From the NCBI GenBank assembly GCA_051294375.1, contig CM119263.1, positions 30,629,376 through 30,693,375 of the forward strand: a stretch of 64,000 bases of DNA, written 5' to 3'. The position numbers were made by a program, and so were the translations under genes. Numbering within the stretch: the stretch's first letter is position 1; each line of letters opens with the position of its first letter. Below the pieces are notes generated by a model. That model saw nothing but the letters and a program-made list of their open reading frames with translations. It was not told the DNA's origin and made no database searches. The DNA is from Paraspadella gotoi. Its lineage: Eukaryota > Animalia > Chaetognatha. Positions 15,230 to 61,085 of this stretch are shown in pieces.

Positions 15230-15619
15230 GTACTGTATGTATGCTCCTGTATGTACTGAATCAACCTTGTTGAATTCGAAATAAAACGCATTATAATAAA
15301 CTTGATAAAGATATATTGGAAAACGTACATGAACTAAAAAGTATATGTTTTAATTCATTATGAAATAAGTTGTTCAGCCCCAAGAAAAAAATCGTCATTC
15401 ACACATTTTTTTAACAGAAAATTCTGGACCACGTCAGAAAGTGACATTATCTCATTACGTATGTTTCATTATCATGATATGTATCTTGAACATTGTTCGG
15501 TTCTAGATAAAATAAAAATGCTTTGCTTATACATATTGTGTAAAATGAACCAAGAATGTTTTTTATAATGTTCATATAATGAATTAAAATTAAACATTTT
15601 TTGAAGCTGAAATCGAATA

Positions 15620-17167
15620 CGACGCAGAGACAGATCACGCTTAATTTCAAGTGCACGAAAAAAAAATTATCGGTTATTGAATTTACATTGTCTAACCATT
15701 TGTTCTAACAAGCCATCCCTTCCTGACAGTTATGCTGGACAAATATATGCAAAATTTGATTCGGCTAGAATGATACAGTAAAATACAGTATAAAAGTCGA
15801 AATTTGGACTGAAAAAGTAAATTGTTGTAACTTTTTTTTTAAATACAGTTATGAAAAAAAAACCACATTACCAGTATCTCTTATGTTTCTGCTCTTATAC
15901 GATATCAAAAAGTTTTCTTATTCATACAAGTATTTGTAGTAATAATTTTTTTAAATAACATATATTTTTTTAGTTTTATTTATTTTCAAGCTTACTGCTT
16001 TCATGCATCCCTTGTTCGAGCCCTGAGGTTGTCATGTAGAAAGTGGGATGGACCGGGTAACCCGCCTGTAGGCATGGGCCTACTGCCAGATCCAAAGCTC
16101 TGGACTACATGAACATGCTGTCTCGCTGTCTCCACGAGGTGACACCGCTGCGGGTGTGGCGCCCTGTACAACCAGCCTCTTCAATGTTTTATTTAAGCAT
16201 TTTTTTTCAACGAATCATTAATAATTTGTAATTTTGGTTATGAAATCAATCACTTCTAACTTCTAATGATGCATAACTATAACAAAAATTTTTAAATAAC
16301 TAACTAATGCTATAATAAATTTTTTTATTCCCTTCAGAGTACCATCATCAAATTGATTAACTTTATGTGAAGAAAACAAACAAATAACAAGAATTAACAG
16401 AAATAAATATGTTATGATAACAGCCGGGTGCGGTCACCCGAGGACGGTCTCGCTTTGCCAACGCAGAGAGAAGTCGTTAGAACTGTGGACGGAACTCAAC
16501 ACTTAGGATGGTGCGTTCCCGATGGGATTGGCTGAACGATGTGAGGCGGTGTGAATATACCACCACAATATTTACTTTTCACTTTTCATATCATTTCAAG
16601 AGCTTTAATATATCAACGTTGAATGTCCTTTGGTATTGAAGCCAAGCGGGAATCTTTTTTCGTATTTCCCAGCAGGAAAACGCTTGACTTTTTTATGGCA
16701 GAATACTTGTTCTCCGTAACCCATTTCACCAATACACGGTCATTGATGATGATGGTCTATTACAATGAACAAGTTCAAATATAAATTAAAAAAAATTATT
16801 TTGTAATTCAAGTATCATAATTCATTTACATATTTTGTACTATTCCCAGGTAAAAAATTATTTACTAATGGGTCTGAAATATTGCTCTTTTTCTGTAGAT
16901 AATGAATATCTATTGTTAAAGCTCATTATGTACATTCGTAAGGTAACCAAGGCTCTTAACATAACGCTACTATAATTTTTTGTAAACATTTTTCTGGACT
17001 TGCCCTTCTTGTGGGCGGTTGACACTCATGGAGACAGTACCTTAGATCTCCGAGTACCAAACAACAACTATAGCTAAAAGATTATGAATCAAATATGGCG
17101 ACGAGTGAAGTAAAAATGATCATAAGTAGGCTGGGAAGCAAATTAAGCGTGATATGTCTCTGCGTCT
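15620..17167. mobile_element. Non-autonomous TIR element (TA-flanked); its right ~430 bp recur at 49474-49900
   Basis: TIRs CGACGCAGAGACAGATCACGCTTAATT / AATTAAGCGTGATATGTCTCTGCGTC, flanked by TA. 16742-17167 is near-identical to 49474-49900. Confidence 0.6.
16032..16112 (+). ncRNA. Twister ribozyme (type P5 permutation, minimal P1), in a partial solo LTR (16004-16183) of retrozyme family 2
   Basis: P5 TCATGTAG/CTACATGA; AAA; P2' G(T)GG; GA; T1' TGG; ACCGGG; UAA (predicted cleavage U16058|A16059); P2 CCC; T2 GC; P3 GTAGGC/GCCTAC; P4 CCAGA/TCTGG with loop T-CCA-AAGC. All twister core positions are present. Confidence 0.85.
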
Positions 17168-33100: not shown

Positions 33101-36100
33101 TTGCTAAGATGGGACGGATGGACAGATTGATTGACTGATTAATTAATTAGTGATTAATTAATTGACTAATTGATTAATTAACTGATTAATTATTTGATTT
33201 ATTAATACATCCTGCATATACATTTAATATAAAAGGAAAAAAATCATAATCAATTAGTGAAACAGGTTTTTTGTTTTTTTTCCATTTAAACTCATTTCCA
33301 CTCAAACGATTCCATCGAACTTGTTTCCTGTTCAATCACACACTTTCCTACTCACATACAAAATTCCAGGTCAATCGCCCATCCACTTGTAAGCAATTGG
33401 TGTTCAAATAGTGAATTATATTTTTTTGTTTTTCCATTTAAACTCATTTCCACTCGGACGAATCCATCAAGAAACTTTTATATCCAGCTCAATCACACAC
33501 TTCCCTACCCACACACAAAATTTCATTCAATCCATCCATCCATCCATTGGATTGCATCCATCCATCCATCCATCCATCCAATCACGAGTAATTGGTGTTT
33601 TTTGCTAAGGTGGGATGAACGGATGGACGGATGGACGGACGGACAGACAGACGGACATCATTTTTTTGGCATAATTTATCATAATTCGATGTTCTGACAT
33701 GATATAAGTTAGTGCCCGACAATATTGAGGGGGCGGACCGACGGACCAACTAAGTGAATTATAGAGTCGGGATCTGCTGACAAGCAGATCCGACTAAAAA
33801 AACCTATATTTTAAGCTGAAATTTAAAATTTTATATATTAAATATAGTTTTTTAAATTTTTCACCCACTTAATGAAAGAATTTTTAAAAATGATTTATAT
33901 TTTCACATATCATCTTTTGACGAGGAATTCAAATCTGCAATTAAAATTAAGAAAATCCTATTTTGAAATTTTTCGATTTGATAAGGATAGTACTATTGAT
34001 AAATATAGCCTACTGCGAAAATTGAAGAACATAAAATTATTTTTTTTTACAAATTAATGTTCACTGATGGTATGTTGTTCATAATTGACATTTAGAATTT
34101 TTGTATGTAACTTTCACTATTAGATCTACCTAAAATCGCTCACTAAATCAGCTTTAACAACTTCTTTTATTTTGTTTCTTATTGTCTTAAGAACACGTGT
34201 GATCCAAAAAAACGACAAAAAACTGACCGGAATAAAACCCTCCAGAGCGATCTAATAATATAGTACTCTCTCTGCTCACACGAAAACTTAGGAAATCAAG
34301 GAATTTGAAGTTTTTTTGTCAATTAAGTCTTTATAAATGATATTGTTTAACATAAGTTTATGAATAATATTACTTAATCTTTCCAAATTTAATATTATTG
34401 CTATTATTAATATTAATACTATAAATATAATAAATTTATGAATTTTTCTAATTTTATTTAAAATATTGTTTTAATTTCGCCATTAAATTTTTGTCAGATT
34501 TTTAAAAACAAATTTTGTTCTCACCTAATAACAGAATGCATGTTGGAATAATAACGACTGGCAGTAAAACAAAAAATATATTTGAATAGCAATTCGGGAA
34601 AATAATGCACTTTTTTTTTCTTTCTTTTTCTATCTCTCACTCATACTCGCACTTGTTTATTTTATTTATGATGACTCATCGCTTCAATGAATGACTATCA
34701 TCGCTTCAATGAATGACTATCATCGCATCAATGAATGACTATCATTGCATCAATAATTTGATTATCATTGCATCAATATTTGGTTATCATCGCATCAATA
34801 ATTGGTTATCATCGCATCGCAGATGGAATCAGAACCAAAAATGGGAATCGGATCGGCGACTCGGATAAAATTTACCAAGGACTCTGTGATTTGCTGAATT
34901 ATCATCGAAACGGACCAATGAGAAGAGAGGCTTCATGCCATCGGGAAACGAGCCCATGTCGATGATCCGATTGTATTGTAAAAATACCAGACCATTTTGT
35001 ATTGAATGCATTCTGCCTGAAATTCTGACACCGTCTTTGCCTGTGACTTTTCTGAGAATAAAATCCATTTTGGTTTCATGTTGAAATCTCTGTCTACTTA
35101 CTTAAATGTGGTGACAGGAGAGGATTCGACAAGCCACGACTCCAAGTAGAAGAAGAAAAGCCTCTACCACCCCAGCCACGCCAACCCCTAAGAAGATGGA
35201 CTTCGCCGTCAGACGAAAGACGGCTCCAGCCATTCCAGCTTATGGTGCCGGAAGCTCCACCGAAAGCGAAGGCGGTAACATTGAGCGCGAACTCGACTTC
35301 CACACTTTCGAAGTGTTGGGAGCATTACGCCAACAATGCCTAGAAGAAAACAGACAAGCCGAAAGCATTCGTCAGATCCATCAACTGATGAATAGCAACA
35401 ACCTCAAACAACAACAAAATTATCAATAGATGAATCAGCGCCTCGACGAAAGTGAGGTCGCTATCGGAGAAAAACTCGGAGCCCTCAACGAACGCCTTGA
35501 CCAAACCAAGACGCAACTGTGCTCCAAGTTGGGTGAACTTCACAGCATGATGAAGGACATGATGAAGGAGAATCGCGACATGGCAAAGGAAAATCGCGAG
35601 TACCGGGAAAAACACGACAATCGCGGTATCAGTGCCCGGTTGACCGGGCTCGCCCAAACCGCCCCACCTCCATCTTCACTCTACCCCAACTTGGCCGGAC
35701 AACAGCCACCCCAGAATCCTTACCTCGGACAACCGTCTGACAGAGGGAGTCTACCAATCCTGGAGGACTCCCCATCGGAGAGTGGTTGAAGCGATCCGCC
35801 ATCCTACGCGCCAGCTGATCAACCCATCAAGTTAGAAAAAATGAGGAACGACGAGAGCCCCGAACAATTCCTACGTAGCTTCAATGAGGCCTTTAAGGAC
35901 TCCCCGGCGACCGACAAAGTTGATCAACAACTCCGGGCCCTCCTCACCCGCGACAAAATCGCAAGCAGATTTGTCGACCCAATAAACCAATCAATGTGGT
36001 TAGGCCTCCGCGCCCTCTGCGAGGGATCTTCCTTCAGCATCGCCAAGGCCCTCGCCGAAGCCAAGGTCGAAGTAGACCCACATGTCCACGCAAAATACGG

Positions 36101-39100
36101 CCTCGCCCTTGTAAATGCAGCCAGGGAAAACTTCGAAGCCGTTAGGGAAAAAGACAGAGTCTCCATCCCGGATTATGTTGCCCAGATGCTCGTCGAAGCT
36201 CTAGAACCATATCTACCGGGCATAACCTCTGAAACCCTTGAGTGGACAAATCTACTCGAAACGGGCCAAACTCGCCAACTCGGGAAGGCCATCGAATACA
36301 AGCTGCGCGGATATTTGAAAAAGGCGTCCGACGGCGCCATTCGGAAAGTTGTCAAGACAGTCTCCGACGACGACAAGGAGAAATTGGTTAATGCCCTGAT
36401 ACAGAAGGGCCAGACGGACAAGGATCCCACCAACAGCGCTACTTCCTTTTACCAAGGATCCATGTTACAAGAAATAAATAACATGAGCGAAATGGTAAAG
36501 GAAATTAGGAAGGAGATCGGGAAACCCAGCCGAAACGGCCAGACGGAGCGTTGCTACGATCGCCGCGATGACCGACGTGAATGACGCAGCCCCGATCGCG
36601 CGTACGACAAGAAAAACTGAAAAAAAAACCCGCGATTGAAAAAACGACAGAAAAACCAATTGGCGTGACGACAGAAAAGGCAAAAAAGGCCCAAGCTTCG
36701 GTAGATGTCGCGATATTGTAGATTTAACTGATAACCTTGAAATTTATTCCTCTGATGATTTTGATGACAATTAAGATAATTACTATTACAACCGTGTAAT
36801 AAATGAATCTAAAATCGAGTTAAGACAAAAAAAGCTAAAGGACAATTATCAATCCCTCGGGGACAAAGTAATGAAAGTAGAAACAGCTGACATCAGTGAA
36901 TCAGAGAAACAAAGGGCAAAAACCCTCGCCGAGACAGCACATCAGCTAAGAGGGAAATCTACAGCATCCCAACTACACAGACTTCTCAAACCGCTCAACG
37001 CGAAAGAGATAGCCCTCACGAACAAATTCTTACACAAGCTGGGCTGGAGAGATTGGGCCAAAATCGATGCAGGCGAAAAGAAGGTCAGAATCTCCAGATC
37101 GAGGGCCTGTGCCAAGCTCACACGCAGAGCAGATAGAGCCAAAGCAAACAACTTCACGCCGGGTAATTCCAACGTCCAACCTCGCGAAGAGCTTCCAACC
37201 GGGAAGCTGATAATCCAATCCCCCCCCCGCCAAAAAGCAGAACAATAGGCAAAACCCGGATAGGAGAAACAGTAGACCAACCCTGCGAAAACTTCGGCCA
37301 ATGGGAAATAAGGGCAACCCCACGTACACAATAATCGCAGAACAATCAGGCGAGTCACTCCACCAGGCCACCATCAGGCGAGTGGAGCTGGAGTGCCACC
37401 AGCCGGAACTATTTCTCCAACCATCAGCAAAACCGGAATCTACCAAGGATGAAAAAGATTTGCCTTCTCTTCCCGAAAAAGCAACAAACATCCTCAAAGG
37501 TGACAAAGGCCCGGAGCCCAGAGATGACACTGGAAAAGCCTGCCACTCTGGCAAAAACAGCTATATTCCTACAGTCATCGCGGGAGTACCAGCAAGTTGC
37601 TTGTATGACACTGGAGCATCAGTGAATACAATCCCGAGAAAGTTCATAGACAAATGGTCATTGAACAATAGGATTTACCATGGATCGCCACTACGCCTGT
37701 CAACAGCTACAGGCACGCTCACACTAATGGAAAGAATCGACTTAAGAGTAATGTTCCAGAAATGGGTCCTGAAGACGGTTTTCTACATTTCAGCCAATGA
37801 GGATGACCAGGACATAATCATCGGCACAGCAATTACAAACCCAGGCCCTCCTGAACAACTCTGGGTTGTACAATGTACAACCATCGGGACAAAAAGACAA
37901 CTTGCAAATCGCTTCGATAGCAGGAAAACCGGTCACCCACCTTTTTGGAGACAAACACGAGGCGTTGAAAGCTGCGAGATGGTTAGCCAGAGGAAACCTG
38001 GACGAGCAGACTTCCTTACCAGTCGAGCTTGACCCTGACAGAACCACAAAGCTCACGTCCAGCAGGCCATACTGGAAAACGCTTGCTGGCTCAAGATGGA
38101 TTGTGGAGTCTCTAAACGACGACAAGGCTTATATCATCGACGGCGACCAACTCTGAGGAGTAGAAATAAATGCCCAACCCGGAGCCTGGGGATTTGCTCG
38201 CCCATTGATCACAAATGAAGCAAATTCCGAATTAGGTCTAGAGACAAAAACCACAGCTGACATGTCTGAAGAAAAACCCCTACTCAGGAAGATCAGAAAA
38301 GACAACATCCCCGCCACAACGATCATCCACCATAAACTGTCAGAAGAGGAAATCCGAGCGGTGGAGGATGCGCGCAAAAAAAGGCGCGAAAAACACGACG
38401 CCCGTGGAAAAGAGGCGTTCCTAAAACCTTTCAAGGATGTTGATCCCAGCCTACAAGAAAAGGCCCACCTCATCTGGGAAATCGTCTGGGACTACAGAGA
38501 TGTCTTTGGAGAAACAATCAACGATTGTAAGGACCTCGGTTTCACAGAAGAGGATCTGCCAAAACCAAGATTTGCAAACCAAGGCCCGGTAAAGAAGGCA
38601 GCCCTCAAAAGATACTTGGAGGTTTATGAGAAAGCTGGCATCGTCTCCCAAACTAGGAATGAGGCCTACTCAAACGCTTTCCTCATCAAAAAGCCAGGAC
38701 ATATTGCTGAAGGTCAAGACAAAATGAGTGATGAGACATTCGCGAAATAATGGAGACTTATTTGTGACTTATCAGCCGTAAATAACATTTCAACATACGC
38801 CACTGAACCACAAACAATCACCTCCATCCTCAAGCAGTATAAACCGCATGAGCTACAATGTTTGGTTGACATTCTCGCTTGTTTTCACCAAGTGAACCTG
38901 TCGGATCGCTGCAAACTGGTTACAACGTTTGCAGGGGCAGGCCACAACTGATTGATGAACAAGCTGCCCATGGGAGGCGTCAATAGCGTCAATGTGCTGC
39001 AAGCCATTCTCGATGAAATTTTTCAGGACCTGGGCACAGATGTCAAGAGTTTTCTCATATATGTGGACGATCTGATACTGACCGCCAAATCGCCCGAAGA

Positions 39101-42100
39101 TATGGTGCAAAGACTCCACGACCTCCTCCAGAGATGCAGGGATGAAAATGTCGTCCTCAAGTGGACCAAAAGAGTGCTCCTCCGGAAGGAGGATTTAAAG
39201 ATCCTTGGGTTCAACATCTCAAGGAGTAAGCTCATGCCACAAAAAGAGAAGCTTGAAGCAGTTGAAGTAAAGTTGAAGAAGCTAAAGACTCAAAAGAAAC
39301 TTAGAGCGATGCTAGCCTCTCTCAACAGATGTTTCACACACCGCTTCTCTTACATCGCCCAACCACTACACGCCCTCACATCGCTTGACAAAAAGAACTT
39401 CAAACTCACCAAAAAACATACCGACATGTTGCAAACCTTGATCAACGAGATCAAATCGTCACCAGGTCTAAATTTCCTCAACGATGCCAGAATAAAACAT
39501 GGCACGTACAGAATCTACGCTGATGCAAGTACCAGCGCAATGGGAGGACTCATCACCGTCACAGCAGATGGCATTGAGTATCCACTCTCCTTCCACTCAA
39601 AATCATTCCCGGAAGAATATAGGATCAAACATCAACATTCTCGAAACCCTGGCTTTCAACATGATGGTTAGGAAGTTCAAGGGGTACACATGTGGAAGAA
39701 GGGTGACTCTGGTAACAGACTCAAAATACTTCAAAAGAATCATGGACTTACAGCACGACAGACAGCAACTCCTGCCCACAAACGTGCTCAGATGGATAAT
39801 GGAAATCCGCCAAGAGTGTCAGCCGAAAGAAATAATCCTCGTGAAGAGCGAGGACAACCCGGCCAACTTCCTCACCCGCTTTACCAAACAGGGACAGGTC
39901 ACCCCACTGGACACCCCTTTCTTCCCCCCCTTTTTGACGTGGAAGGCAACTACGAACCCGGTTTCGCCGAAAACCCAATTGACAGCCAAGAAACCCAAGA
40001 ACTCGAGATTGACACCAAAACATTCAGGGAAAAATTCATCTGGCAGAAGTTCGGCGAAAAGAAAAATTACAGAAAAACTGTATGGCAAACCCAAAACCAA
40101 GGATGCCGACACTTTCATCAGAACCGTTGCTGCCAAGGACTGGAGCTTAGGTCACCCAGAGCTTGAGTTACTCAGTGAAATGACCGACATCACCATGATG
40201 GAAGAGGAATTCGTCAATCAAACGGGCTGTAAATATGAAAGAGTATACGGGAAACCCGGATACAACAGAAAGATAAAAATATTCAGAACGATAACGGGCC
40301 AAGTCAGCCTCATCAGCAACATCAACCCACAACGGCCCCTGCACCCCCCCGCCGGAGGTCCGATCCAGACCATCAAGGTCTCCGACCTCCGCCCGCCAGA
40401 GCGCCGCGGAAGGCCCAAACAACCAAGAAACGACCAGTACCAGACGAAACAACCCCCCCAGGACCTTGTCAACATAAAACTCAAGCACAAGAACATGCGT
40501 CCACCAACCCCAACGGCAGCTATGGACATGGTAGAAACAACGTGGCCAGGAGCAGACATGGAAGCCATGGTCGATAGCGCACTGGAGGCAGACGTCGACG
40601 CTTCAGAGTCGGAAATCGCCCAGGAAGTGAGGCAGCCTAGTGCCAAACAAGAAAAATTACTCCCTATGGCAGCCACGGTAAAGGATTGGCAACAAGAAGA
40701 AGAATTGTTCAGAACCGTCATAAGCGCCTTACTAGAACATGACCGTGAAGCCGCAGAGGTGCTCCTAAACAAAAAGATGGAAAAGCGAAAGACGCTAACA
40801 GAAAGATACCTCGCCAACAGTCTCACTGACCTCGACGTGACAGAAGATGGCATCCTCGTGATCAAAGGATACAAAAATAACAATCAGACAACCAAATACG
40901 TCGTGCCCCCAAATAAGGCCGAGGAAGTCGCGACAAAACTGCACGAGCATTTCGGCCATCCTGGTTGAGACAGGACAGCTTTCATAACGGCACAATATGT
41001 TTCAGCACCAGGGTTATCAACCGCAGCCGCCAAATGCGTCAGAAATTGCAATAACTGCGCAAAATCAACAGATACCCAGAGACACAATGAAACACCGTCT
41101 GCACCAAACCTGGCCCTCACACCATGGGAATCACTCAGCATCGACGTAATGCACCTCCCCCCTGTATCCGGATACAATTACATCCTCGTAGCATCAGACA
41201 ATGCTTCGGCTTATACCTGGGCCATTCCCCTACGCCGAGCCAATGCAGAGAGCCTTGTCCAAGCCCTTGACCAGAATATATTCCTCCGACACGGGTCATA
41301 CATGGAAGTAAATTTCAACGGAGCAACACAACTAAACGGAAAGACAATGAAGTCCATTCTCGACGCGTCTTAGTAGGAAGGACAGTAACAGGGCCAAAAG
41401 GGACATCGGCAGAATCCGGCAAGCATTGAGAAAGGCAGTGGAAGATCAGCCAAAGAGATGGCTGGAACAGCTCCCACACTTAATGCTGCTACTAAACGCC
41501 ACACCAATAATCGGTTGGAAAAGCAAAATGTCTCCTCACGAAATTCAATTTGGACACAGGCCAAGAATCGTTGAGGCGGCGGACGATTACACAAAAAGAA
41601 ACTTAATAGACTTCATCCGAAAAAGGGCTGACCGACAAGAACAGGCAAGATCCAAACTTGCAGATCAACGCACAAAGCTCTATAAGCAGTCATCTCGTAA
41701 CAACCCATACAGGAAACCCGAAAATATCAAAGTGGGTGACCTAGTCCTGGCCAGACGAGACCTCATCATGACAGGAACCACGAAAGCTGAGAACAAGGTC
41801 AAACGTATCAATTCAATCAAGTCATTGAAAGGGACGCCAACCATTTCGTCCTCTCTATCAGCTGCGATCGAAAGATCGCGACGACGATAATAACGAAGAA
41901 ACCGCCGAGAAGCCAAACCGAATCAGCGAAGCCTCCTCCTCCTCCTCATCGGAGTCGAAGAGACGAATATAAAAAGAACGAAAATAGAGGCAAAGAAATC
42001 ACGTTTCGACGCAGAATCCTGAGCCAAACCACGCGCAAAAGGAGAATTAAATAAAAACCAAAACAGTCTTTTTTAAGGCTAAATCTAAAAAGATCCTAAG

Positions 42101-45100
42101 TAAAAAAGAAATAAACCAAAAAGTTTTTTTTAAAAACTCGGCCAAAAAGTCTTTTTAAAGACGGGCGATAAACAGAGACAAAGTGGTGCATGTGTTTGAT
42201 TGCAACAAGACTCGCCACATCGCTACTGGACCCCCATCACTGTGACACACTCAAGCCAAAAAGTTGTACGGGGTGAACTGGTCTTCATCCCGGACAAAGA
42301 AGAACACAACGGAAAAGGCTGTGATCTAACCATCTCAGTAAAGGGAGCTGTCTGCGGATGGTGGTCTATCCAATATCCCAAAATCAGATCGGTAGACCAT
42401 TTTTCCCTCACCAGAGCCCAATGTCTGATTCTGCACAACGGAAGGAAGCTAACTCTGGATAATCTGCCCATAAAAACATCAGACAGAACAGGGCTAATGG
42501 AACCACTCACACTATCCGGCGGAAAACTTGGACTCAATCAAGCTACTTTCGAGATCGGACGGAAAAACTCCATGCAAAGAAAGTCCCGCGGTGAAGAGAA
42601 GCCTCGAAACATACTGGAAGGCCTGTCTTAGTAACTTTGTACGGCCAAACATGTCCAACAACCATGAGAGATGCGCTCCAATATGCGATGCCAACCAGAA
42701 GGTCCTCTTCACACTACAGCTTACAGGAGAAAGTATGCAGGTCCCGGGTTGTGGAATCAAAGTGGAAGGAAAAAGCTCCTCGAACTTTTATTTCACAAAC
42801 CAAATTACGAAGGAACAAGCCCAGAAAAACCAGGCAAGCCTGGAGGCCCTGACCAAATCATTGCGCAAGGAGATCTGTGCCCTAAAAGTCACCGAGGCAA
42901 GAAAAATAGCACAAATCGCCCACAAAAACCCAACGTCGACAGCCTTTATCAAAAGAGGGCTAGTCGCCGTAATCCGTGGAGAGCTGCTGCTTACGGCACA
43001 ATGTGATCAAACCCTGGCACACGTGAGGAAGACTAAAGAGTGCTACCACGACCTACCAATAGACTTCCGCGGCCAACAGACTTTTCGACACGCCATCTTC
43101 CACCACGTCAACCCAAACAAGCTGCTCGCCGCCACCAGTCTATTACCAGAACAATAAGTACAGAACGACGGACAACAGCGTGCAGCAAAATTACAAAGAA
43201 ATCACAGCAAACATCCCCGATGCACAGGAACGCATCTCCGTCGAAGAGGACCCCTACGTCCAGATCGGAGCCTTTCTCAAACACCATGACAATTACATAA
43301 CGGACCAACAGAACTTCAATAAACATGTTGGAGAAATCGCTTCGAGCACGCCTTACTCAACCGCCAAAAAAATATTTGGCGACATACCAAGGTGGACATG
43401 GCTGGCAGACATGACGAACGTTATCCCCTTCGCTGTCGCCGCCATTATCATCATCATAAGAATAGTGATCGCATACTGCTGCCCCCTACGAATGCCCGGA
43501 CTGACGCAGAGGCAGACACCCACACCGACGATCACCTGGGAGCAGGCACAAAGTAGGATATTCGTACCTATCCCAGTCCCCACTCGTGCTTCAGACTGAC
43601 CACATACGCCGTCGTCAGAGGAGGGGGCGACGCATTGCAGATGGAATCAGAACCAAAAATAGGAATCGGATCAGCGACTCGGATAAAATTTACCAAGGAC
43701 TCTGTGATTGGCTGAATCATCATCAAAACGGACCAATGAGAAGACAGGCTTCATGCCATCGGGAAATGAGCCCATGTCGATGATCCGATTGTATTGTATA
43801 AATACCAGACCATTTTGTATTGAATGCATTCTGCCTGAAATTCTGACACCGTCTTTGCCTGTGACTTTTCTGAGAATAAAATCCATTTTGGTTTCATGTT
43901 GAAATCTCTGTCTACTTACTTAAATGATCGCATCACTAATTAGTTATCATATCAATAATCAATTACTATTATATCAATCAATTACTATTACATCACTCAA
44001 ACAATTACTATTATATCAATCAATAAATTAATATTATATCAATCAATCAATTACTATTACATAAATCAATTACTATTACATTAATAATTTGTTATTGCAT
44101 CAATCATTTGTTTGTTTTTTTTTAATTTTTTCATTAATTCTTTTGATAGTAACGTCTGGCAAGATCACTAGACTTTTAAGATTTGTTGTCTCATGGTTAT
44201 TGGTCTTGTGACTTACGTATTTGACATTTGAATTTTTAACACTAATTTTAATTTTAATCCAAAAAATTGTAAAATATAATTTTTATTATTTCATTTTGTT
44301 TTATCTTTACTGAATAATTTTTTGTTTTTATCATAGTTTTCGATAATTTTTCCAATTTTATCATTCATTTGTATTGTGGATTTTATCATTTGGATGACAA
44401 TTAAAATTTGGTCAGATCAGCTTCTTCTGTCGGGCACCAAAGCATTGAAGATAAAATTTACAAAATACATTTTAAAAACTATTGAAAAAATCGTTTCAAC
44501 CTTTCTCTTTGGGTACAAGATAATTATTCCAATGGAAATTTGTTATAAAAAACTTCCATGGAATTGTCATCATTGGATCATTATTATTTTCATGTGTCTC
44601 TTAAATTTAACTACTATGTATTATTCTCTCAGGGCTTATATTTTTATCAGAAAATCTCGAAACTACTGCGCTTATTACCAAAAAGCTCTTGATTCAAGAG
44701 TTTGTTTAAAATTAAAGCAAGCAGTTGATGCTAAATGTTTAGAAGAACAGTGCCGGCTCTTGTATAATAAAACAAACAATTCTATCTTTTTGTCAAAATC
44801 TTGTTCAAATATTTCAGCTCTCACATGTAGGATCTTCTCTTTTGCTTTAAATAGCATAACAGTATTATATAATAGAACAATGAATATTAAATATTGAATA
44901 TTGAAGGACCTCCATTATAGCATTTAAAAAGAACGAATTAAAAGATATCAAATTGAGTTCTTAATTAGATTACTGTTATATAGTCCGAAGAATTTGGTGG
45001 TGATGACCATTTTTTGATAATTTCATATTTCATGTCAGAAAGGAGCATATTTTAAACATATAAAAGGGTAAAAGGGTATGTCAAAAACAAATTGTTTAAT

Positions 45101-48100
45101 TTTTTTAGAAGTCATATTTAGTATAAAAAGTAGTAGAAGGAAAAAAGAAATTTTTTTGAGAGAACTAGAAGTTATAAAAAGTGTTCAATTTTGGCCCGCC
45201 TTACTAGATATATTGCATGTGATTAAACAATGTTATCGGAATAATAATTTTATCAATTTTAAGTATTTTGTAAGTATTTTAAGTATTTTTATTCAGTGAG
45301 TAAAATAACAACTTTTTTATTCGCTAATTTTTATCTCGGACTCTCTCTTTCTCTCTCTCTCTTTGCAATTGCGACGATCCTTATGCTCATTTTTCTGCTC
45401 TTTCTCTCTCTCTCTCTCTCTCTCTTTTTCTGCAATTGCGACGATCCTTATGCTTTTAGGATTTTTTTAACTTGCATCATTTTTCTGCTTGCATCATTTT
45501 TTCAACTTGCATTTTTTTTAAATTGCATCATTTTTTCACATTAATTAATTAATTAATTAATTAAAACATTTATTAGTAATCATAAATTAGTAATCATAAA
45601 TAATAAAGATTCAAATAAATGTGACTTATGTTTTTTCCATTTAAACTCATTTCCACTGGCAAAATTCCGTCAAAACTTTATATCTAGCTTCTGCACACAC
45701 TTTCCTACCCGCTCACAAAATTTCATCTCAATCTATTATGGGTTAAAATAAGTAAAAAGAGTCAAGTAAATGTGACTTATATTTTTTTCATTTAAACTCA
45801 TTTCCACTCAGCCAATCACGAGTTATTAGGGCTTTTTGCTAAGGTGGGACGGATTGATTGATTAATTAATTAGTGATTAATTAATTGATTAATTAACTGA
45901 TCAATTATTTGATTTATTAATACATCCTGCATATACATTTAATATAAAAGGGAAAAAAATCATAATCAATTAGTGAAACAGGTTTTTTGTTTTTTTCCAT
46001 TTAAACTCATTTCCACTCAAACGATTCCATCGAAACTTGGTTTCCTGTTCAATCACACACTTTCCTACTCACATACAAAATTCCAGGTCAATCGCCCCAT
46101 CCACTCATGAGCAATTGGTGTTCAAATAGTGAATTATATTTTTTTGTTTTTTCCATTTAAACTCATTTCCACTCGGATGATTCCATCGAAACTTTATATC
46201 CAGCTCAATCACACACTTCCCTACCCACACACAAAATTTCATTTAAATCCATCCATCCAATCACGAGTAATTGGTGTTTTTTGCTAAGGTGGGACGGACG
46301 GACGGACGGAGGGAGGGACGGACATCATTTTTTTTGCATAATTTATCATAATTCGATGTTCTGACATGATATAAGTTAGTGCCCGACAATATTGAGGGGG
46401 CGGACCGACGGACCGACAAAGTGAATTATAGAGTCGGAATCTGCTGATAAGCAGATCCGACTAAAAAAAAAAGAATTCAGCAGAGAAAATAAAGGGACAA
46501 AAACTGAGGCGAGTATCGCGACATTGAAATTTTAACCACTCCTTGGACTCCACTTCCACAAACGATGGCACCGCTAACTACAGACGACGCTGACGCCGCC
46601 GTCACCGTGGATTAATCATAAGAGAATCATCGCGACCGTAAATATGCGGCGACAACGACGTCTCTCTCTTTCTTTCTGTCTCTCTTTCTTTCTTATTTTA
46701 TCTCTTTCTTTCTTTCTTCTCTTTGTCTTTTTTATTCCTTTTAGTTTTACTCTTTATTTTTTTCTGAATTATTTATAAATAAATTCTTTAGTTTATGGTC
46801 AAAATAATTCGGTAACTCGAGATTTTTTTTTTTGATTTTGGTTGCTTAGCAGATTTAGTAAGTAATTTAATAATTATTCCTAAGTTGCCTCACTAACAAA
46901 ATTAAAAACGTCATATACTTTCATGTATCTCCAAAAGCATTTTTGAAGATCCAAAATAATGTGTTTTTTAGATTCTGAGGTATCATTCGAAGAAAAGTTG
47001 CTAAATTTAAACTCAGCAAAGGCATATAGTTACATGTTATCAACCCAAATGCTCTTGAAATTTTGTCAAGAATATTCAACTTGGTATTCTTGGAGAAATT
47101 TAGTTCATAGTAATTTTGTTAATATACTTATTTATTTTATGGATTTTAGTCTTTTTTTTGGAAACCAATTTTGCTATACATTTCAAACAGATAATTTTAG
47201 TTTATTTCCATTATTAGTGAGTTTATTATTTAGTTTTTTTGCTACTGCTGTTATAAATGCAAAATATTCAAGTTACTCAATGGCTTGTTTTTATTATTAT
47301 AAGGAATATAATATCACAGTTAAAACAGTAAAGAATCTGTTACCAAATTCAGAAAATCTTTTAAAAAAACAATGCTTATCATACCTTCGACTTAATTATT
47401 TGGTTTACAATCGTATTTCATTATTGCTTTCTGATGATTTGATTGATCTCCCACAACACTTAAAGCTCTCTGGAAAAATAAAGAAAAAAATACTAAGGAA
47501 GAAAAGTATTTTTTCATATTATGATTACAATTTAAAGCAATCTGTTACAGCCTCTGGAATGTATGTATTCTATCCTCCAGGTCAGTAAACATAATTTATT
47601 TCAAGGAACAACCCGGTAATGATGATGAAGTTTATAAGAATTTTGATCAACCCCAATAATTTTTCCCTTTATAATTTTTTTAAAACTTTGACTCAAAATT
47701 TCTTTTTTTTAAATTAAGTAAGAATTTATATGTTTAATTATTCAATAATCAAAATAAAGCATTTTTTCGGCTCTATGTATGTAGTCGGGCATTGCATAAG
47801 TTCTCCCCGCCTATAAGCATGATACCTTAACTCGTGACCCGGTGGCTTCCCTACTGCGTCGAAATGCCTGTCGGCGATGGCGGCCAGTTCCGCCGCTGTC
47901 AATGATTCGGCGCGTTCGATAACGTTCGCATTGACCGCTGGAGGGAGGCTTCTAATGACGAGCTACTTCCTGATGTCGTCAATGTTGACCGTCGACGATT
48001 TCACTACCAAGCGGGCGAGGGGTTGCGACGGTCGCATGTCGTCACTGGAATTCTTGGCCTTAGGTAGGGGTAGCCGCACTCAATGGGGTGAGTCAAAAAT

Positions 48101-51100
48101 TTAGAGTGAGTACATGCTCAAACGAATATTTAGACATTTTTAAGAATACTTTCAATGGACAAAAAATTTCTAATATGGCTCTATACCCTAGTAATTAATT
48201 TTTTAATATTTATTTATAGATAGGAAAGGTCAAAAAATTTTTTTTGAATTTTTTAATTTTAAGATCAGATTCAGATAGCTCATAAAAAGTTGTCTACACA
48301 AAGTATGATTCTTTTTTAAATATTTTTATGATAAGCGTGTCAAAAATAAGAAAAACTATAAAAAATCATCATCATCATCATCTTTCGATGATTTTATCAG
48401 TTTTTCTATATTTTCACTTAGAAAACGTAAGAATTTTTAAAAGCTGTAATTATATTTCTTGTTTAACTTTTTATGCTCTATCAGAATCCATCAAAAAATT
48501 TTAAGATTTTAAAAAAATATTTTTTGCTCTATATAGTAATATAATATTTTTAATTAGGCGAGTACCTTCAGAAGAAAGCATTTTTGACAAAAAATATTTT
48601 AATACCATAATCTATGTTCATGATAGATTATTTTAACGCTGTATACATTAGCATTTAAATTTCATCGGCTATGGCTACCTTAGGGAGCGTCTCGGCTTGC
48701 TGGCGCTTCGTCAAACAGTATTCGGAACACAGATATTCGATTAAGGCCGACCGCCACTGCCATTGTCGAGGGCGCGTCCGCGAAGGCGTTTGTGTTGGCG
48801 GAAGGAAAAGTAAATAGTAGCATAGTAGCATGATAAAATGTTATTTTAAATATATAAAATTATAAATTAAAAGTTATTTTCAGTTTAATATAAACAGTTT
48901 GGATGTCTACCTTTTTGTCTGTGAAAAAATAAATAATAATAATCATTTTTCATTAAGTTTAACTGAAACAAAAAGCTTGACCCACTGCTTGTTTATCATA
49001 TTACAATTTTAAATAAATACAAATGCAAACATATATTTTTTAAATTTTATTTTATTTTAAGCTTTTATCATTTTTTTAATATTATATATATATATAATAA
49101 CATCTAATATTCTCAATTTGAGCAAAGCTTTACTTCTTTAAAGATTTTGAAAAAAATATTTCACTTGACCAATGGTCATTCAGAATTTTAGTTTTGCATA
49201 AAAAATAAAGATATCAAAAAACGAAAAACATCAGATTGTTCCAAAATCGAATGCCTTGAATCTGATATTTTTCAAAATGCAAAATTTTGGTTCATAGTCT
49301 AGATCTAAAATTCTGAACACAAAAATGTTTTTTTTCAAAAATTGAATTATTCTATCTTCTTCAATAATTAAAAATTAATTAAGCATATTATTCTTGTATA
49401 TTAAGCAGCCAAATTTATCATGCATATTGGCAAAAGATTGCTTTTTTGAAAAATCTTTTTGAAAATCTTTGCTATTGATGATGATGGTCTATTACAATGA
49501 ACAAGTTCAAATATAGATAAAAAGAAAAAAATATTTTGTACTATTCCCAGATAAAAAATTATTTACTAATGGGTCTGAAATATTGCTCTTTTTCTGTAGA
49601 TAATGAATATCTATTGTTAAAGCTCATTATGTACATTCGTAAGGTAACCAAGGCTCTTAACATAACGTTACTACAATTTTTTGTAAGCATTTTTCTGGAC
49701 TTTTTGTCAGATTTCTTCTTTTCCTGACCCTATTGCCCTTCTTGTGGGTGGTTGACACTCATGGAGACAGTACCTTAGGTCTCCGAGTACCAAACAACAA
49801 CTATAGCTAAAAGATTATGAATCAAATATGGCGACAGGTGTAGTAAAAATGATCATAAGTAGGGTGGGAAGCAAATTAAGCATGATCCGTCTCTGCGTCG
49901 TAACAAAATAAATTTTTGTTTTCACTAAACCACTAATCAATAATCCATTATGATTTATAGTCAAAAATTATTACCCGCCTTTATTTGTTAGGATTTACTG
50001 TATGGTCTTCAGACTCGCAGTTTTCTGTACTCCATATTATAAGAGGTGTTTGTGTATCTATAGATAAGATTGGAGTTATGACAAAATATACTGCAGAAGA
50101 TGTAGTTGGAATGAGTAGTTATTGGTTTAAAAAACAACCATCAACTCTCATTTGTAAAACTTATGTTTTTGGTTTTTTTATTGGGAAAGAGGTATATCTC
50201 AAGAGTTTTCTAGAATCATTTTTTTCAGATACAATTCAGGTTTACATGAGAATTGCCCCAGTTATTGAATTTGAGTCAAACACATTAAAAAGCATCAGCA
50301 CAGAACAAAAATATGTAGAGAACAAATTAATTTCAGAATTCTCTCAAACTTATACCTTAAATATAAAAGAAAGAAAAAATCGGTTTACTAAACATTTAAT
50401 TCTTCAGAATTGTATCCAGAATTTGCAAATACAATTATTTATTCACTGTTTTTTAATGGGAATGTTATATATAGTATCTGTAGTATTATCTATTATTCAA
50501 ATACAGTTTTTAGATTATCCAAGATATTTATGGCTTATACACTCCGTTTTAGATAGCTTAATAATTATGGATGGGTATTTCATATTTCAGCAAAACCTTA
50601 AATATTCCCTCTCATCAATAAAATTTTCATTTATTTATTACACTTTTTTGGTCTTTCCTTTAGATATTTTCTTTGTGAATAGTTCGTCAAAATTTTTCAT
50701 CTTATTACGATCATATCGGATAATTAGATTACTTGAACCATTTAGAAGAATTTCTGCTTTCAAAAAGTTATGTCCTGAATACTTGAATCTTATCTTTGGT
50801 TGGGAAGTTATTTTAAGAACAATATTACACATATTGGTTTTATCGTTTTTTATAGATATTTATTGGTGTCGTTTGGATAATTCAATATCATGTAAAAATA
50901 ATATCATAGCGAGTTATTTTCTTATACCTAATGGAATAAAAAATATTAAAAAGATATTAGAAAATTCATTTAAAACTACAGATTTGAATGAAAAATATTT
51001 TCCTATATTTCAGGAAAATGACAATAATTATTATTTGCTTGGTTCTTTACAAGAATACATAAAACTGATAAATCAAAGTATTGTTTCTTATAGTTTGCCC

Positions 51101-53278: not shown

Positions 53279-53875
53279 TGAAGAGGCTGGTTGTACAGGG
53301 CGCCACACCCGCAGCGGTGTCACCTCGTGGCGACAGCGAGACAGCATGTTCATATAGTCCAGAGCTTTGGATCTGGCAGTAGGCGTTTGCCTACAGTCGG
53401 GTTACCCGGTCCATCCCACTTTCTACATGTCAACCTCAGGGCTCAAACCAGGGACACACATTGGGATGGTGCATTAGTCCACTGAGCCACTGCGAAAGAA
53501 AAAGCTTTAATCCATCTGTGGTGATAGGGCCACCAGACAGCAGCCCCCAGGACTGTCACATATGAGAGTATGAAGTAGGGGATGAAACGCATGTCTCTCC
53601 GCTGAACCTCTCTTCATTCTGGTGGCCTTGCTTTGAGTGGCAGCTGCGTAGCTCAAACCACATCAAGGGCAGAGGAATATTATCATGCCCGGTTTGCATG
53701 TTTAGATCACGTCGGGCTCACCATTGAAGAGGCTGGTTTTACAGGGCGCCACACCCGCAGCGCTCAGGGCTCGAATCAGGGACGCACATTGGGATGGTGC
53801 ATAAGTCCACTGAGCCACTGAGGCGCAGCGAAAGAAACAGCTTTAATCCATCTGTGGTGATAGGACCACCAGACA
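53279..53875 (-). mobile_element. Twister-ribozyme LTR retrozyme/TRIM, family 2
   Basis: On the minus strand: 5' LTR 53875-53725 (TG…CA, internally deleted), 18-nt PBS TGGTGAGCCCGACGTGAT (53723-53706; tRNA-Trp-like), ~165-bp non-coding interior, G-run PPT, 3' LTR 53539-53279 containing the tRNA-like module and twister. No clean TSD. Confidence 0.8.
53351..53429 (-). ncRNA. Twister ribozyme (type P5), T2 mutated (GC->GA)
   Basis: Reverse complement: CATGTAG-AAA-GTGG-GA-TGG-ACCGGG-TAA-CCC-GAC-T-GTAGGC-AAAC-GCCTAC-T-G-CCAGA-TCCAAAGC-TCTGG-A-CTATATG. Confidence 0.75.
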
Positions 53876-56553: not shown

Positions 56554-57677
56554 TAATGTTTTGCGTTTTATTAGCATTTTATATACATTAAAAATCGTCA
56601 TTTCCATCAAGAAATATGAAACTATCCAAGAAAATGGTTATAACCATCGAATTTTTCAGACCTGATTACAGTAAAATAATTATGAATGAAATTTATTATC
56701 TTATATCTTGTTATCTTTAAACGTTCTATTGATCATAATCATCACGCTTTCCCTTTAAAATCTATTGAAAACAAAAATTTCAACTTGAAAAAAAAAATTG
56801 GTTGATTTATTATAATTATCATAGTAAATAAGTTAGGATTTACATAATAATTTTTTATAATAAAAAATCAACAAACTGACTTTTTATCGCCCAATTTTTT
56901 ATTTTTATATCAGATAACTTCACAATCAGCGTTAAAAATTAACTTAAAATTTTGAAGAAATAACTACGCGCCTGAGAGTAACTGTGATTATTAAAGCGTA
57001 GCAAAAATATTAAAATCAAGTAGAATCAAAATTCGAATAATAGATCATGAACATGCTTGTACCTGTAAACATTTCAGCAGATCCCGACTAGTGTTCCGTT
57101 AACCGTTAATTTTTGAGGAACTTCGCTTAACCGTTAAAACTAACGTTTTTAACGGTTAACCGTTAAAATCGGTTAATTTTATAATTAAACATTAAATTTA
57201 AAATATTAATATTTAAAACTTACTAAAGTATTTACTGGTATTTTCTCCTTAACTCCGGCTACTGAATCGTCTTTATCTTTTATTTCAGATAGATGAGGTA
57301 CACATTATAGTTGATAAATGAGAAAATTGGTTTGAAAAAACAGCATTATAATAATTTTTTTTGCCTCATAGCTTAATAAAAATATGAAAAAATACTGAAA
57401 GAAAAAGCACAATGTAATTTTAATTCTGTATATTTTGTTTTCTCTTTCTCTCTTTTTCTTTCTTTCTTTCATTTTCGCTTTTTCTTTTTCTCTTCCTCAT
57501 TATTTTTATAGTTGTTAGTATTTCATTGAAAGCATGTTTTCTGTTGTTAGTCTTTCAATAACCCATGACTATAAAATAATAATATGAATATTAGGTTAAG
57601 ACTTCTTTCAAGTTATCTTAACATGTGAAGAGACAGTAATTATTGATAAGTGTTAATGACAGAACCGTTCAATATAA

Positions 57678-57750
57678 GCAGTTCTGAGCTTCGGATCAGG
57701 CTGTAACACCATGTTACAGGCGGGTTAAGCGCCCCGTCCCTCTTAACTGC
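57678..57750 (-). ncRNA. Twister ribozyme (type P5) in the 3' LTR; one G missing in P4
   Basis: Same sequence as 58086-58159 except TCAG for TCAGG. Confidence 0.75.
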
Positions 57751-58085
57751 AGACGACCACGGCTAGAACCCCGGACCTTTGGTGGGAGGCGAATGACTTG
57801 CCTCGGGCACCAATGGCCGCTGATGAAGGTTGGTGGATTTTAGTCCACCATACATCCCCCTCCCATAGGGAGAAGTCTGTTGCGTCTCTTCAGTGAATTG
57901 TTGTTGGTGGAAAGTTCGTCACCAAGTTGAGGCATGTCGCCTGATGTGTTGTGGGCGGAAAGTGCATCGCCAGGTTGGGCATGTCGCCTGAAAGTGTTGT
58001 TGTTGCTGTTGTGTTCGGAGTCGGGCTCACCAATGAAGAGACAGTGATTATTGATATATGTTAATGACAGAACCGTTCAATATAA

Positions 58086-58159
58086 GCAGTTCCTGAGCTT
58101 CGGATCAGGCTGTAACACCATGTTACAGGCGGGTTAAGCGCCCCGTCCCTCTTAACTGC
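58086..58159 (-). ncRNA. Twister ribozyme (type P5), intact, in the 5' LTR
   Basis: Reverse complement: GCAGT-TAA-G(A)GG-GA-CGG-GGCGCT-TAA-CCC-GC-C-TGTAACA-TGG-TGTTACA-G-CCTGA-TCCGAAGC-TCAGG-A-ACTGC; T1 pseudoknot CGG/CCG, T2 GC/GC. Confidence 0.88.
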
Positions 58160-61085
58160 CAGACGCACACCGGGCTAGAACCCCGGACCTTTGGGTTGGG
58201 AGAAATGACTTGCCTCCGGCACCAATGGCCGCTGATGAACGGTTGGTGGATTTTAGTCCACCATACATGGAATAAAAACCCATTGTTTGTAAACAAATAA
58301 ACTTTGTTTTCTTTTAATTATGAATATCAATTTATTAATTGAATGGTTGAATGATCGATTGATCAAAAGACTTATTAATTAATAAATATTTTTTTAAATT
58401 TTATTAAAGTAAAGTATATCATCATTGAAGGATAGTTTTAGTTTGCCTTAATGTCTTTTCAAAGATTCATTCCTTCTGTTGTTCATTTTTTAAATGTTTT
58501 TCTAATAATTTTTTTATTTTAGTTTTTTTAATTTTTTCATTCATTCGGCTTTATTTATTTACTTCTTTGTTCGTTTTAAAAATTGAAAGAAAAATCTAAA
58601 AAAAGTAAAATAAGAAAGATCTTTTTTTATTTAGCAAAATAGAATATTATTGCATGTAAAAATTTGATTAGCAAAAAAATATATGTAGATGCATATTATA
58701 TTTCAAAATATTCTTTGATGTAAATGTATAAAATTAGCTGAAAGTAAAAACGAAAACAATTGGGAGAAAGTAAAAAAATTACCGGAAGGGCAGAAAAAAA
58801 TGATAATAGATTAGGAAAGAAAAAGATTAAAAGGGTTGAAAATAACAAAGAAAAAAAAGGGGAAAATATAAAACAGAGAGAGGGGCAAAAATAAAATGAG
58901 AAAGGGAGAGGAGAATAAGGAAAAAAAATTTTTTTCTTAAAAAATCAAAGTTTTCATAACAAAAAATAACAAAAATCATACTTGAAAATTAACCGAATTT
59001 AACCGTTAAAATAAATATATTAACGGTTAAGTTAAAATTATTTTTAACCGTTAATAACCGTTAACTGTTTACGGTTATTGGAACTCTAATCCCGACTCTA
59101 TAATTCACTTTGTCGGTCCGTCGGGCCGCCCCCTCAATATTGTCGGGCAATCACTTACATCATGTCAGAACATCAAATAATGATAAATTATGCAAAAAAA
59201 TGATTTCCGTCCGTCTGTCTGTCTGTCCGTCCGTCCCACCTTAGCAAAAAGCTCCAATAACTCGTGATTGGGTGGTTAGATTGGAATGAAATTTTGTGTG
59301 TGGGTAGGAAAGTGTGTGATGAAGTTGGATATAAAGTTTCGATGGAATCGTGCGAGTGGAAATGAGTTTAAATGGAAAAAACATAAGTAGCATTTACTAA
59401 AATATTTTTACTTATTTTAACCAATAATTACTCTAATTAATTATAATTGGATGAATAGATTGAGTTGAAATTTTGTGTGTGGGTAGGAAAGTTTGTGCCG
59501 AAGCTTGATATAAAGTTTTGATGGAAACGTGCGAGTGGAAATGAGTTTCAATGAAAAAATATGAGTCACATTTACTTCAATCTTTTTACTTGTTTTAATC
59601 CATAATTACTCGAATTAATTATAATTGAATTAATAGATTGAGATGAAATTTTGTGTGCGGGTAGGAAAGTATGTGAAGAAACTAGATATAAAGTTTTGAT
59701 GGAATCGTGCCAGTGGAAATGAGTTTAAATAGAAAAAAAAATTAAATTTACTTGAATCTTTATTATTTATGATTACTAATAAATGTTTTAATAAATAAAT
59801 TAATTAATTAATGTGAAAAAATGATGCAATTTAAAAAAAATTTGCAAGTTAAAAAAATTATGCAAATGAAAAAAAATGATGTAGGTTAAAAAAATGATGC
59901 AAGATAAAAAAATGATGCAAGTTGAAAAAATGATGCAAATTGTAAAAATGATTCAAATTGAAAAAATGATGTGAGTTGAAAAAATGATGTGAGTGGAAAA
60001 AAGTATTAGGAGTTGAAAAAATGATGCAAGTTATTTAAAAAAATATTGTGATTTATCATCTGATTAGCTGATTACCGCTTAATTATCGTAGGCAGATCCG
60101 ACATTGTTTGCTCAAACTTGTTATTTTTCAATTTTTGCATACGCTCTTATTTTTACATATTACTTACCATAAAAAAATGTTAAAATTTTCAAATGTTTTT
60201 TCTTATTTTTAAAAGCAGATTCGAATTCCTCATGAAAAGTTGATAAAAGGAAACTCTTAGTAAGCCTATTCCATTAAGTGGTCCCAAATTCCTAAAAAAA
60301 CTATTATTATTAACCTATAATTAAATTTTATTATATAAAAAATATAGTTTTTTAGTCGGATCTGCTTATCAGCAGATCCCGACTCTATAACTCACTTTGT
60401 CGGTCCGTCGTCCGCCCCCTCAATATTGTCCGGCACACACTTATACATGTCAGAACATCGAATTATGATAAATTATGCAAAAAAAAACGATGTCCGTCTG
60501 TCCGTCGTCGTCCGTCCGTCCGTCCGTCCGTCGTCCTCCGTCCCGTCCGTCCCACCTTAGCAAAAAACTCACAATTACTCGTGATTGGATGGATGGATTG
60601 GTATGAAATTTTGTGTGTGGGTAGGAAACAGTGTGATTGAGATGGATATGAAGTTTCGAGGGAAATCGTGCGAGTGAAATTGGTTTAAATGGAAAAAACA
60701 AAAAAAATATATTTCACTATTTCAACGCCAATTGCTCATGAGTGGATAAGGCAATTGACTTGAAATTTTGTATGATGGTAGGGAAGTGTGAGATTGAGCG
60801 GATATAAAGTTTCGATGGAATCGTGCGAGTTAAAATGGAAAAAAACAAAAGTCTATTACTTGAAGTATTTTTACTTAAATTTACTCATCAATTATTATGT
60901 TTATTAAAAATTGGATATGATGATCGAAATGAATTGTTGTGTGTGGGTAGGAAAGTATGTGATAAAGCTGGATATAAATTTTTTGATGGAATCGTAGGAG
61001 TGGAAAAGAGTTCAAATTAGAAAACCAAAAGACACATTTATTTGAATTTTTAAAGTTTCTCTCTCTCTATCTCTCTCGATGATTG

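Follow-up and report, generated by a model that had tools for sequence, protein, structure and literature searches.

A non-coding LTR mini-retrotransposon with a covarying twister fold in its LTRs is a probable retrozyme of Paraspadella gotoi

An abundant LTR mini-retrotransposon without coding sequence, hereafter family 2, is represented by a damaged copy on the minus strand of the window analyzed here, a 64,000-nucleotide stretch of the Paraspadella gotoi genome (contig CM119263.1, assembly GCA_051294375.1). Intact copies of family 2 probably replicate as an LTR retrozyme. The anatomy of the element, the occurrence of copies with distinct flanks, a twister fold that covaries over four families, and the intact ribozyme letters of other copies are established; from these features we infer the cleavage and the circle that the label retrozyme implies. 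The coordinates of all features are given in Table 1.

Table 1. Positions of the family-2 element, its parts, and the other twister-bearing sites of the window.
Feature	Position	Strand	Description
Family-2 element	53279-53873	-	595 bp; damaged copy of a mini-retrotransposon with LTRs and no coding sequence; ends set by the break points of contigs
5′ LTR	53725-53873	-	149 nt; without 118 nt holding the ribozyme; junction 53763/53762
A box, 5′ LTR, TGGCTCAGTGG	53807-53817	-	motif as in PMC10886601
B box, 5′ LTR, GATTCGAGCCC	53767-53777	-	
PBS, TGGTGAGCCCGACGTGAT	53706-53723	-	18 nt, tRNA-Trp type; one base after 5′ LTR
Interior	53538-53724	-	187 nt
TGAAGAG	53610-53616	-	complement of LTR end; family-1 counterpart 57892-57886
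Polypurine-tract-like G run	53540-53548	-	followed by TG, then 3′ LTR
3′ LTR	53279-53537	-	259 nt, TCTGG...CTCTTCA
A box, 3′ LTR	53479-53489	-	
B box, 3′ LTR	53439-53449	-	window letter at 53445 differs from most copies
Type-P5 twister fold, 3′ LTR	53351-53429	-	T2 disrupted at 53397, P5 at 53354
Putative general-base G, 3′ LTR	53415	-	
Six-base P1, 3′ LTR	53410-53405	-	
L4, 3′ LTR	53371-53364	-	
Predicted twister cut, 3′ LTR	53404/53403	-	between U 53404 and A 53403
Family-2 solo LTR	16008-16183	+	5′-truncated, no A box, 95% identical
Intact family-2 twister fold in solo LTR	16033-16111	+	predicted cut 16058/16059
Family-1 element	57626-58265	-	640 bp, two LTRs, twister fold in each, same part order
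Family-1 predicted cuts	58136/58135 and 57727/57726	-	409-nt unit
Third twister family	21504-21566	-	T2 AC/GU; first P2 pair A-U; no P3
Fourth twister family	27805-27888	+	T1 GGA/UCC; A replaces putative general-base G; within LTR-like remnant 27712-27933

Results

The family-2 copy of the window is crippled

The first-pass annotation of this DNA had described a twister retrozyme with LTRs, an 18-nt PBS, a G-rich polypurine tract (PPT), and a tRNA-like module. The repeats ending in CTCTTCA (53731-53725 and 53285-53279), the PBS, the interior TGAAGAG, the A and B boxes, and all the helices that it listed are present in the sequence. The G run proposed as the PPT is there too but is weak in this copy, with five G (53548-53544) followed by CTGC. 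What stands of the tRNA-like module is the promoter boxes only, as ARAGORN found 0 full tRNAs in the 64-kb window. The 3′ LTR ribozyme had been called a T2 mutant, and the break in T2 (53397) is real, but a second break in P5 (53354) had been overlooked, as had the deletion of the whole ribozyme from the 5′ LTR (149 nt, against 259 nt for the 3′ LTR). With the 5′ ribozyme deleted and the 3′ ribozyme broken in both T2 and P5, this copy is crippled, and a unit-length product is impossible from the copy itself. The family-2 copy that had been proposed as intact does contain an intact fold at 16033-16111, but its carrier is a 5′-truncated solo LTR without an A box.

The genomic setting is AT-rich eukaryotic DNA. 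Other features of the window include a gene with at least 6 calcium-binding-EGF-like exons, one repeat each, with short introns between them (13923-15230, plus strand), degenerate TTAGGG-like repeats (20900-21000, minus strand), and a Gypsy-type element (approximately 34813-43926, plus strand) whose LTRs are 97% identical and which includes pieces of protease, reverse transcriptase (RT), RNase H, and integrase in several broken frames, as well as a viral fusion glycoprotein domain (PF24664). The EGF-repeat gene and the Gypsy-type element with its fusion domain point to an invertebrate animal as the likely host.

Family 2 is abundant and most of its copies have intact ribozyme letters

The stretch is present in nine runs of one organism from three studies, and copies were studied through the contigs of four of these runs (X1, X2, X4, and X9). 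Contigs with unrelated flanks break at position 53873 of family 2, with at least 10, 8, 4, and 3 of them in X1, X2, X4, and X9, respectively. The family-1 end is TATGG at 58265, where 149 X1 contigs break, with 47 more one base further and 119 at the other end, and the flank most frequent at family-1 ends, as read from the contig break points, is ATAT. Ends at 53873 and 58265 give a putative target duplication of 4 bp, namely CATG/CATG for family 1 and ATTG/ATAG (one mismatch) for the 53279-53873 copy. The LTR had been said to start with TG; the break points place the integrated end at TCTGG (53873) and not at TG (53875), and they rule out a 2-bp target duplication with TG...CA ends. End trimming by integrase is an established retroviral mechanism, and the TG that separates the purine tract from the 3′ LTR is best interpreted as the dinucleotide that integrase would remove.

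In X1, 911 contigs matched the family-2 stretch and 15,850 matched family 1. At the two positions where the ribozyme of the window copy is broken, T2 (53397) and P5 (53354), more than 99% of the summed contig depth per run, in 4 of 4 runs, has the letter of the intact 16-kb copy, and at position 53445 of the B box the letter of the window copy likewise disagrees with more than 99% of the summed depth of every run (summed contig depth is not equivalent to copy number). One X9 contig across the ribozyme has a depth of 872, compared with 11-23 on its flank. In addition, contigs link the interior to 77-91 letters of the LTR end (joint 53703-53277), indicating that other family-2 copies retain ribozyme sequence in the PBS-adjacent LTR. 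The predicted self-cleaving motif occurs in both LTRs in family 1, and family-2 contigs keep at least part of it in the LTR beside the PBS; the 53279-53873 copy has lost the 5′ one. Altogether, family 2 is abundant and most of its genomic copies have intact ribozyme letters.

Four families share a twister fold that covaries

A twister descriptor with a six-base P1 detected 5 sites in the window, while the 10 shuffles used as control gave 0, 0, 0, 0, 1, 0, 0, 0, 0, and 0; an exact pattern matched 3 times in the window and 0 times in 100 shuffles. Of the 5 descriptor sites, one is a family-2 copy and two are family-1 copies; the remaining two, at 21553 and 27818, each represent a new family. Placed on the Rfam Twister-P5 consensus, the parts follow the order P5, AA, P2 3′ strand, GA, T1, P1, UAA, P2 5′ strand, T2, P3, P4, L4, P4, P5. 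All 4 families have GA-T1-six bases-UAA-P2-T2 plus a U-NNN-AA-G(C/U) loop, family 4 with A for G, and the conserved letters of L1 (UAA, G, and A) and L4 are kept at 8 of 8 positions in four intact copies and at 7 of 8 in family 4.

The 5 descriptor sites and the window copy were aligned (alignment A1, 6 sequences of 4 families). In A1, 88.5% of 139 cells are paired and 11 of 24 pairs show two-sided change, a result matched by 0 of 500 shuffles in a control that ignores relatedness, with a structure drawn from the same sequences and four families only. Slid-register controls gave 22-41% paired cells. Pairing is 100% in P2 and T1, 92% in T2, 93% in P4, and 80% in P5, each with two-sided changes, and the pseudoknots occur as CGG/CCG, UGG/CCA, and GGA/UCC (T1) and as GC/GC and AC/GU (T2). 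Covariation between families 1 and 2 had been claimed for P5, P3, P4, and T1. When these 2 families are compared alone, there are three clean two-sided core changes, one each in P5, P4, and T1; in P3, 0 of 3 aligned pairs change on both sides and the stems are too different to count, so the evidence from 2 families had been overstated. The broader proposal of selection on the ribozyme fold fared well: the two-sided changes in P2, P4, P5, T1, and T2 over four families and the intact letters of most copies support selection on a twister fold inside an element with LTRs, PBS, and PPT.

Families 1 and 2 were not recognized by Rfam even at E 10, and the sole Rfam twister match in the window was family 3, with 25.8 bits and below the 37.6 cut-off, likely because P1 has just six bases. 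The pair that closes L4 is A-U in families 1 and 2 and G-C in families 3 and 4; the part of PMC5408937 used here calls a G-C pair at this place essentially invariant in twister. P2 consists of three pairs with a bulge, and its predicted probability is zero when pseudoknots are left out. A pattern scan for relatives returned 0 and 2 matches in viral contigs, 0 in prokaryote genomes, and 13 in metagenomes. The 13 metagenome matches were rejected as chance (P4 is unconvincing, T1 pairs fully in 6 of 13, and the best score under R1, a model derived from A1, is 15 bits). In the 2 viral-contig matches, the upstream GA-T1 part is absent by eye. Within the 64-kb window, R1 matches a degenerate third-family copy (14660-14880, plus strand) located within one of the introns of the EGF-repeat gene (match at 14760-14814, 27.5 bits); beyond this copy and the members of the model, nothing scored above 10.2 bits.

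The element could also be a GC-rich TRIM whose hairpins merely look like a twister, a reading that draws on the small sample and the negative Rfam result. Such a coincidence is highly improbable, since the descriptor finds 5 sites here and a single one in 10 shuffles, both pseudoknots covary, and the metagenome matches reach at most 15 bits, compared with 27.5 for a degenerate copy that stands outside the model. The covariation in A1 largely refutes chance resemblance.

The third family sits in a minus-strand element (21205-21606) with a partial tandem repeat and a 7-bp repeat, ATAGCAT, on its flanks; neither a PBS nor a B box was found in this element, which is perhaps a non-LTR element. The LTR-like remnant of the fourth family has a CTCTTCA end. 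The first 38 bases of an element at 47780-48110 (plus strand) are shared with this remnant, as is an A-box-like word, but R1 found no twister in that element. Two family-1 solo LTRs (30179-30358 and 32255-32434, plus strand), with the ribozyme mostly deleted, both sit inside a 2072-bp near-identical duplication that is either recent or an assembly artefact. The family-1 interior (58020-57893, minus strand) contains four small hairpins with CAA-rich linkers between them, possibly a packaging signal; the hairpins of family 2 are different ones.

The six-base P1 may pair between two ribozymes

The spacer between T1 and UAA is exactly six bases long in all 4 families (GGCGCU, ACCGGG, AGGCCU, and UGGCCU), and all four six-mers are self-complementary (inner words GCGC, CCGG, GGCC, and GGCC). 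Their self-pairing energies, -8.1 to -9.1 kcal/mol, lie among the best 0.5-1.3% of all six-mers; when the comparison is limited to six-mers with a GC-only core, they rank in the best 6-15%. None of the 4 folds into a hairpin, and the energy cost of forming one with two pairs is +1.6 and +3.8 kcal/mol. If two ribozymes exchanged halves in a dimer, their P1-P1 pairs would contribute -7.2 and -8.6 kcal/mol (sums without pseudoknots), and by energy terms the unslid P1 register is the only one workable for both families 1 and 2. The P1 palindrome alignment has 83% of its cells paired, a value as high as that of 9 of 500 shuffles and also reached by the register slid by one, so this alignment does not tell the two registers apart. 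In the family-2 circle, the P1 bases can instead pair with P2, and the small hairpin that results spans the cut site. Taken as a whole, the properties of the six-mer suggest that the short P1 pairs between two ribozymes instead of folding back. We tentatively put forward a double-twister model in which the ribozymes of the two LTRs would exchange halves, cut only jointly, and release exactly one unit with its ends pre-aligned.

Dimer-initiation signals of LTR elements carry self-complementary six-mers, and P1 is like them in this respect. The fold could then be real and yet cut inefficiently in the host, serving as a twister-derived structure for dimerization, packaging, or RT recognition, with which the lack of a proper P1, the non-standard A-U pair closing L4, and the silence of Rfam would agree. 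We regard this as quite unlikely. In 3 of 4 families, the catalytic G is retained together with the UAA and the letters of L4, which are not needed for a purely structural role. Moreover, P1 is reported to be dispensable in twister in the sections of PMC5408937 considered here, and in another account cleavage is less efficient without it (PMC8501958, likewise in part).

The primer site, the promoter boxes, and the predicted circle

The PBS agrees with the complement of the honeybee tRNA-Trp (Helenus supplement, PMC10886601) at 17 of the first 18 positions, and the odd letter occurs in families 1 and 2 alike. X2 and X9 each have two contigs in which the PBS complement runs on into a tRNA T-arm-like stretch; hence, the apparent mismatch likely matches the host's own tRNA. 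TGAAGAG had been suggested to pair with the LTR end and close a hairpin around the PBS, and a helix of this kind is indeed predicted in both families. It extends into the first PBS bases, CACCA (53624-53620) pairing with the first five of them, and it belongs to the long arm of the predicted circle. Pair probabilities of this U5/PBS helix are 0.89-0.99 in family 2; in family 1, 8 of 9 pairs reach 0.99-1.0. The chance of such a complement to the LTR end in shuffled interiors is 0.021 for family 2 and 0.007 for family 1.

The promoter boxes fit the Helenus motifs TRGCY..YGG and GGTTC; the B box is one letter off in each window LTR and reads GGTTC in most family-2 copies and in family 1. No run of four T occurs in family 1, compared with its presence in 88% of shuffles. 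A single T5 run is found in family 2, interrupted in approximately 93% of the X1 depth, and a lack of T runs in this family is expected in 47% of shuffles.

Folding the monomers in circular mode, a check proposed by the first-pass annotation, predicts a structured unit in which the ribozyme is blocked. Against 60 shuffles each, the one-unit circle of 446 nt, which is 65% paired, has a z value of -2.9, and that of 409 nt, which is 53% paired, has a z value of -2.4; both values are modest. In the family-2 circle, the interior (53616-53542) pairs with U5, both ribozyme flanks, and the B box. P5 and P2 are broken in the predicted circle, while P5 and P4 are formed in the isolated ribozyme.

These folds bear on the main alternative, a linear route in which the twister would form the 3′ end of a Pol III transcript, taking over from the T-run terminator of ordinary Helenus, the 5′ ribozyme would stay off, and the stretch from start to cut would act as the R repeat of a normal strand transfer. 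In several Helenus LTRs the B box is followed directly by a T run, at the place where our element and two wasp families have a ribozyme core, and P5 has a probability of only 0.03 in the nascent 5′ LTR of family 1. We nevertheless consider the linear route unlikely: the two LTRs have identical sequences, and transcription would produce the ribozyme-blocking interior later than the 5′ copy but earlier than the 3′ copy, an order that would favor the opposite asymmetry. In addition, the interior pairs with both halves of the ribozyme in the circle fold.

Discussion

The replication cycle that we consider probable for intact copies would begin with Pol III, initiating in the 5′ LTR at a site immediately ahead of the A box and reading through. 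The ribozymes of both LTRs would cut at U/A, probably while their six-base P1 strands pair with each other, and release a unit of 446 nt (409 nt in family 1) with a 5′-OH, a cyclic phosphate, and no terminal repeat. Since a unit of this kind has no repeat for strand transfer, circularization would be expected, as in plant retrozymes. A host ligase would close the unit, and the long arm of the circle would block the ribozyme and hide the start of the PBS. tRNA-Trp would then prime reverse transcription round the circle, rebuilding two LTRs, with copying supplied by a Gypsy-type helper as putative partner. Finally, the Gypsy integrase would trim two bases per end (TG at the left), producing TC...CA ends and a 4-bp duplication at ATAT-like sites. 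The neighboring Gypsy-type element of the window was considered as the helper, but its primer site, which is not of the Trp type, does not support this role.

Plant LTR retrozymes, as described in the consulted part of PMC4918200, are the closest parallel to this cycle. They are likewise non-coding, with a ribozyme and an internal cut site in each LTR, a PBS, a PPT, and a 4-bp target site duplication (TSD), which is putative in our element, and they also have a Gypsy-type helper and a predicted circle in which the ribozyme is blocked. However, they have a type III hammerhead instead of a twister (Rfam scans of the window element gave no hammerhead match), they are primed by tRNA-Met and not by tRNA-Trp, and their unit is about 660-1030 nt long, compared with 409-446 nt here, where the circle is predicted from sequence. 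The element described here is also likely animal and has tRNA-type promoter boxes.

With Helenus/TRIMp3, as far as PMC10886601 was covered, the element shares a TRIM size below 1 kb, A and B boxes in the LTR, a PBS, a PPT, an animal host, and, putatively, a 4-bp TSD; by its sequence features it falls within the Helenus definition. Helenus-2_SyJa uses tRNA-Trp, like families 1 and 2, and Helenus LTRs start with TG, whereas the LTRs here start with TC or TA (same source and extent). The covered text of PMC10886601 mentions neither twister nor ribozyme in Helenus, and the twister motifs did not occur in twister context in its consensus file as retrieved, in which line breaks can hide a motif. In the retrieved Helenus sequences, Helenus-2_SyJa and Helenus-2_SyUm, both from gall wasps, appear on visual inspection to have a type III hammerhead core, its loops complementary to each other, behind the B box, a feature that the covered text does not mention; none of the other 8 matches to the CUGANGA word in the retrieved supplement is similar by eye.

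The ribozyme itself is closest to the type-P5 twister (RF02684; PMC5408937, in part), with which it shares the part order, the L1 and L4 letters, T1, T2, and P2 to P5. It differs in a P1 of six self-complementary bases, a three-pair bulged P2, the A-U pair that replaces G-C in closing L4 in families 1 and 2, and a score below the Rfam threshold. The twister T-variants of Perere-3/RTE (PMC8501958, in part) are also weak-P1 twisters of an animal retroelement, but there the twister occurs once, at the 5′ end of an autonomous non-LTR element, and P1 depends on the flanking target duplication, whereas here there is one twister per LTR and no ORF. The minimal hammerheads of Penelope-like elements have the same short palindromic stem by the cut site and two copies per transcript; these elements are non-LTR and their dimer cleavage is shown, whereas for the twister here dimer cleavage is only predicted (PMC6765202, in part).

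In the portions of the reviews considered, animal retrozymes are described without LTR, PBS, and PPT, and twister is tied to RTE-type non-LTR elements; portions of PMC7761336, PMC5680766, PMC10085705, and bioRxiv 10.64898/2026.07.22.740005 also belong to the literature compared. A search of full-text literature, with subscription papers, Roth et al. 2014, and Lunse et al. 2017 outside its scope, returned neither a twister-bearing LTR element nor a dimeric natural twister among the matches listed. This negative is bounded by the supplementary twister list of Roth et al. 2014, which may include short-P1 or LTR-linked cases.

In the literature compared, LTR retrozymes are described as plant elements with a hammerhead. 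If the cycle proposed here is true, an animal LTR element with a twister would extend the circle strategy beyond one type of ribozyme, and the twister class would gain a concrete job. It would also mean that Rfam-type searches miss a short-P1 form of twister. Should cutting moreover take place only in the dimer, the element would contain a natural AND-gate ribozyme. Together with the hammerhead-bearing Helenus of wasps, it would then define a class of LTR retrozymes that had been overlooked in animals, one that combines a Pol III promoter with a ribozyme of interchangeable type.
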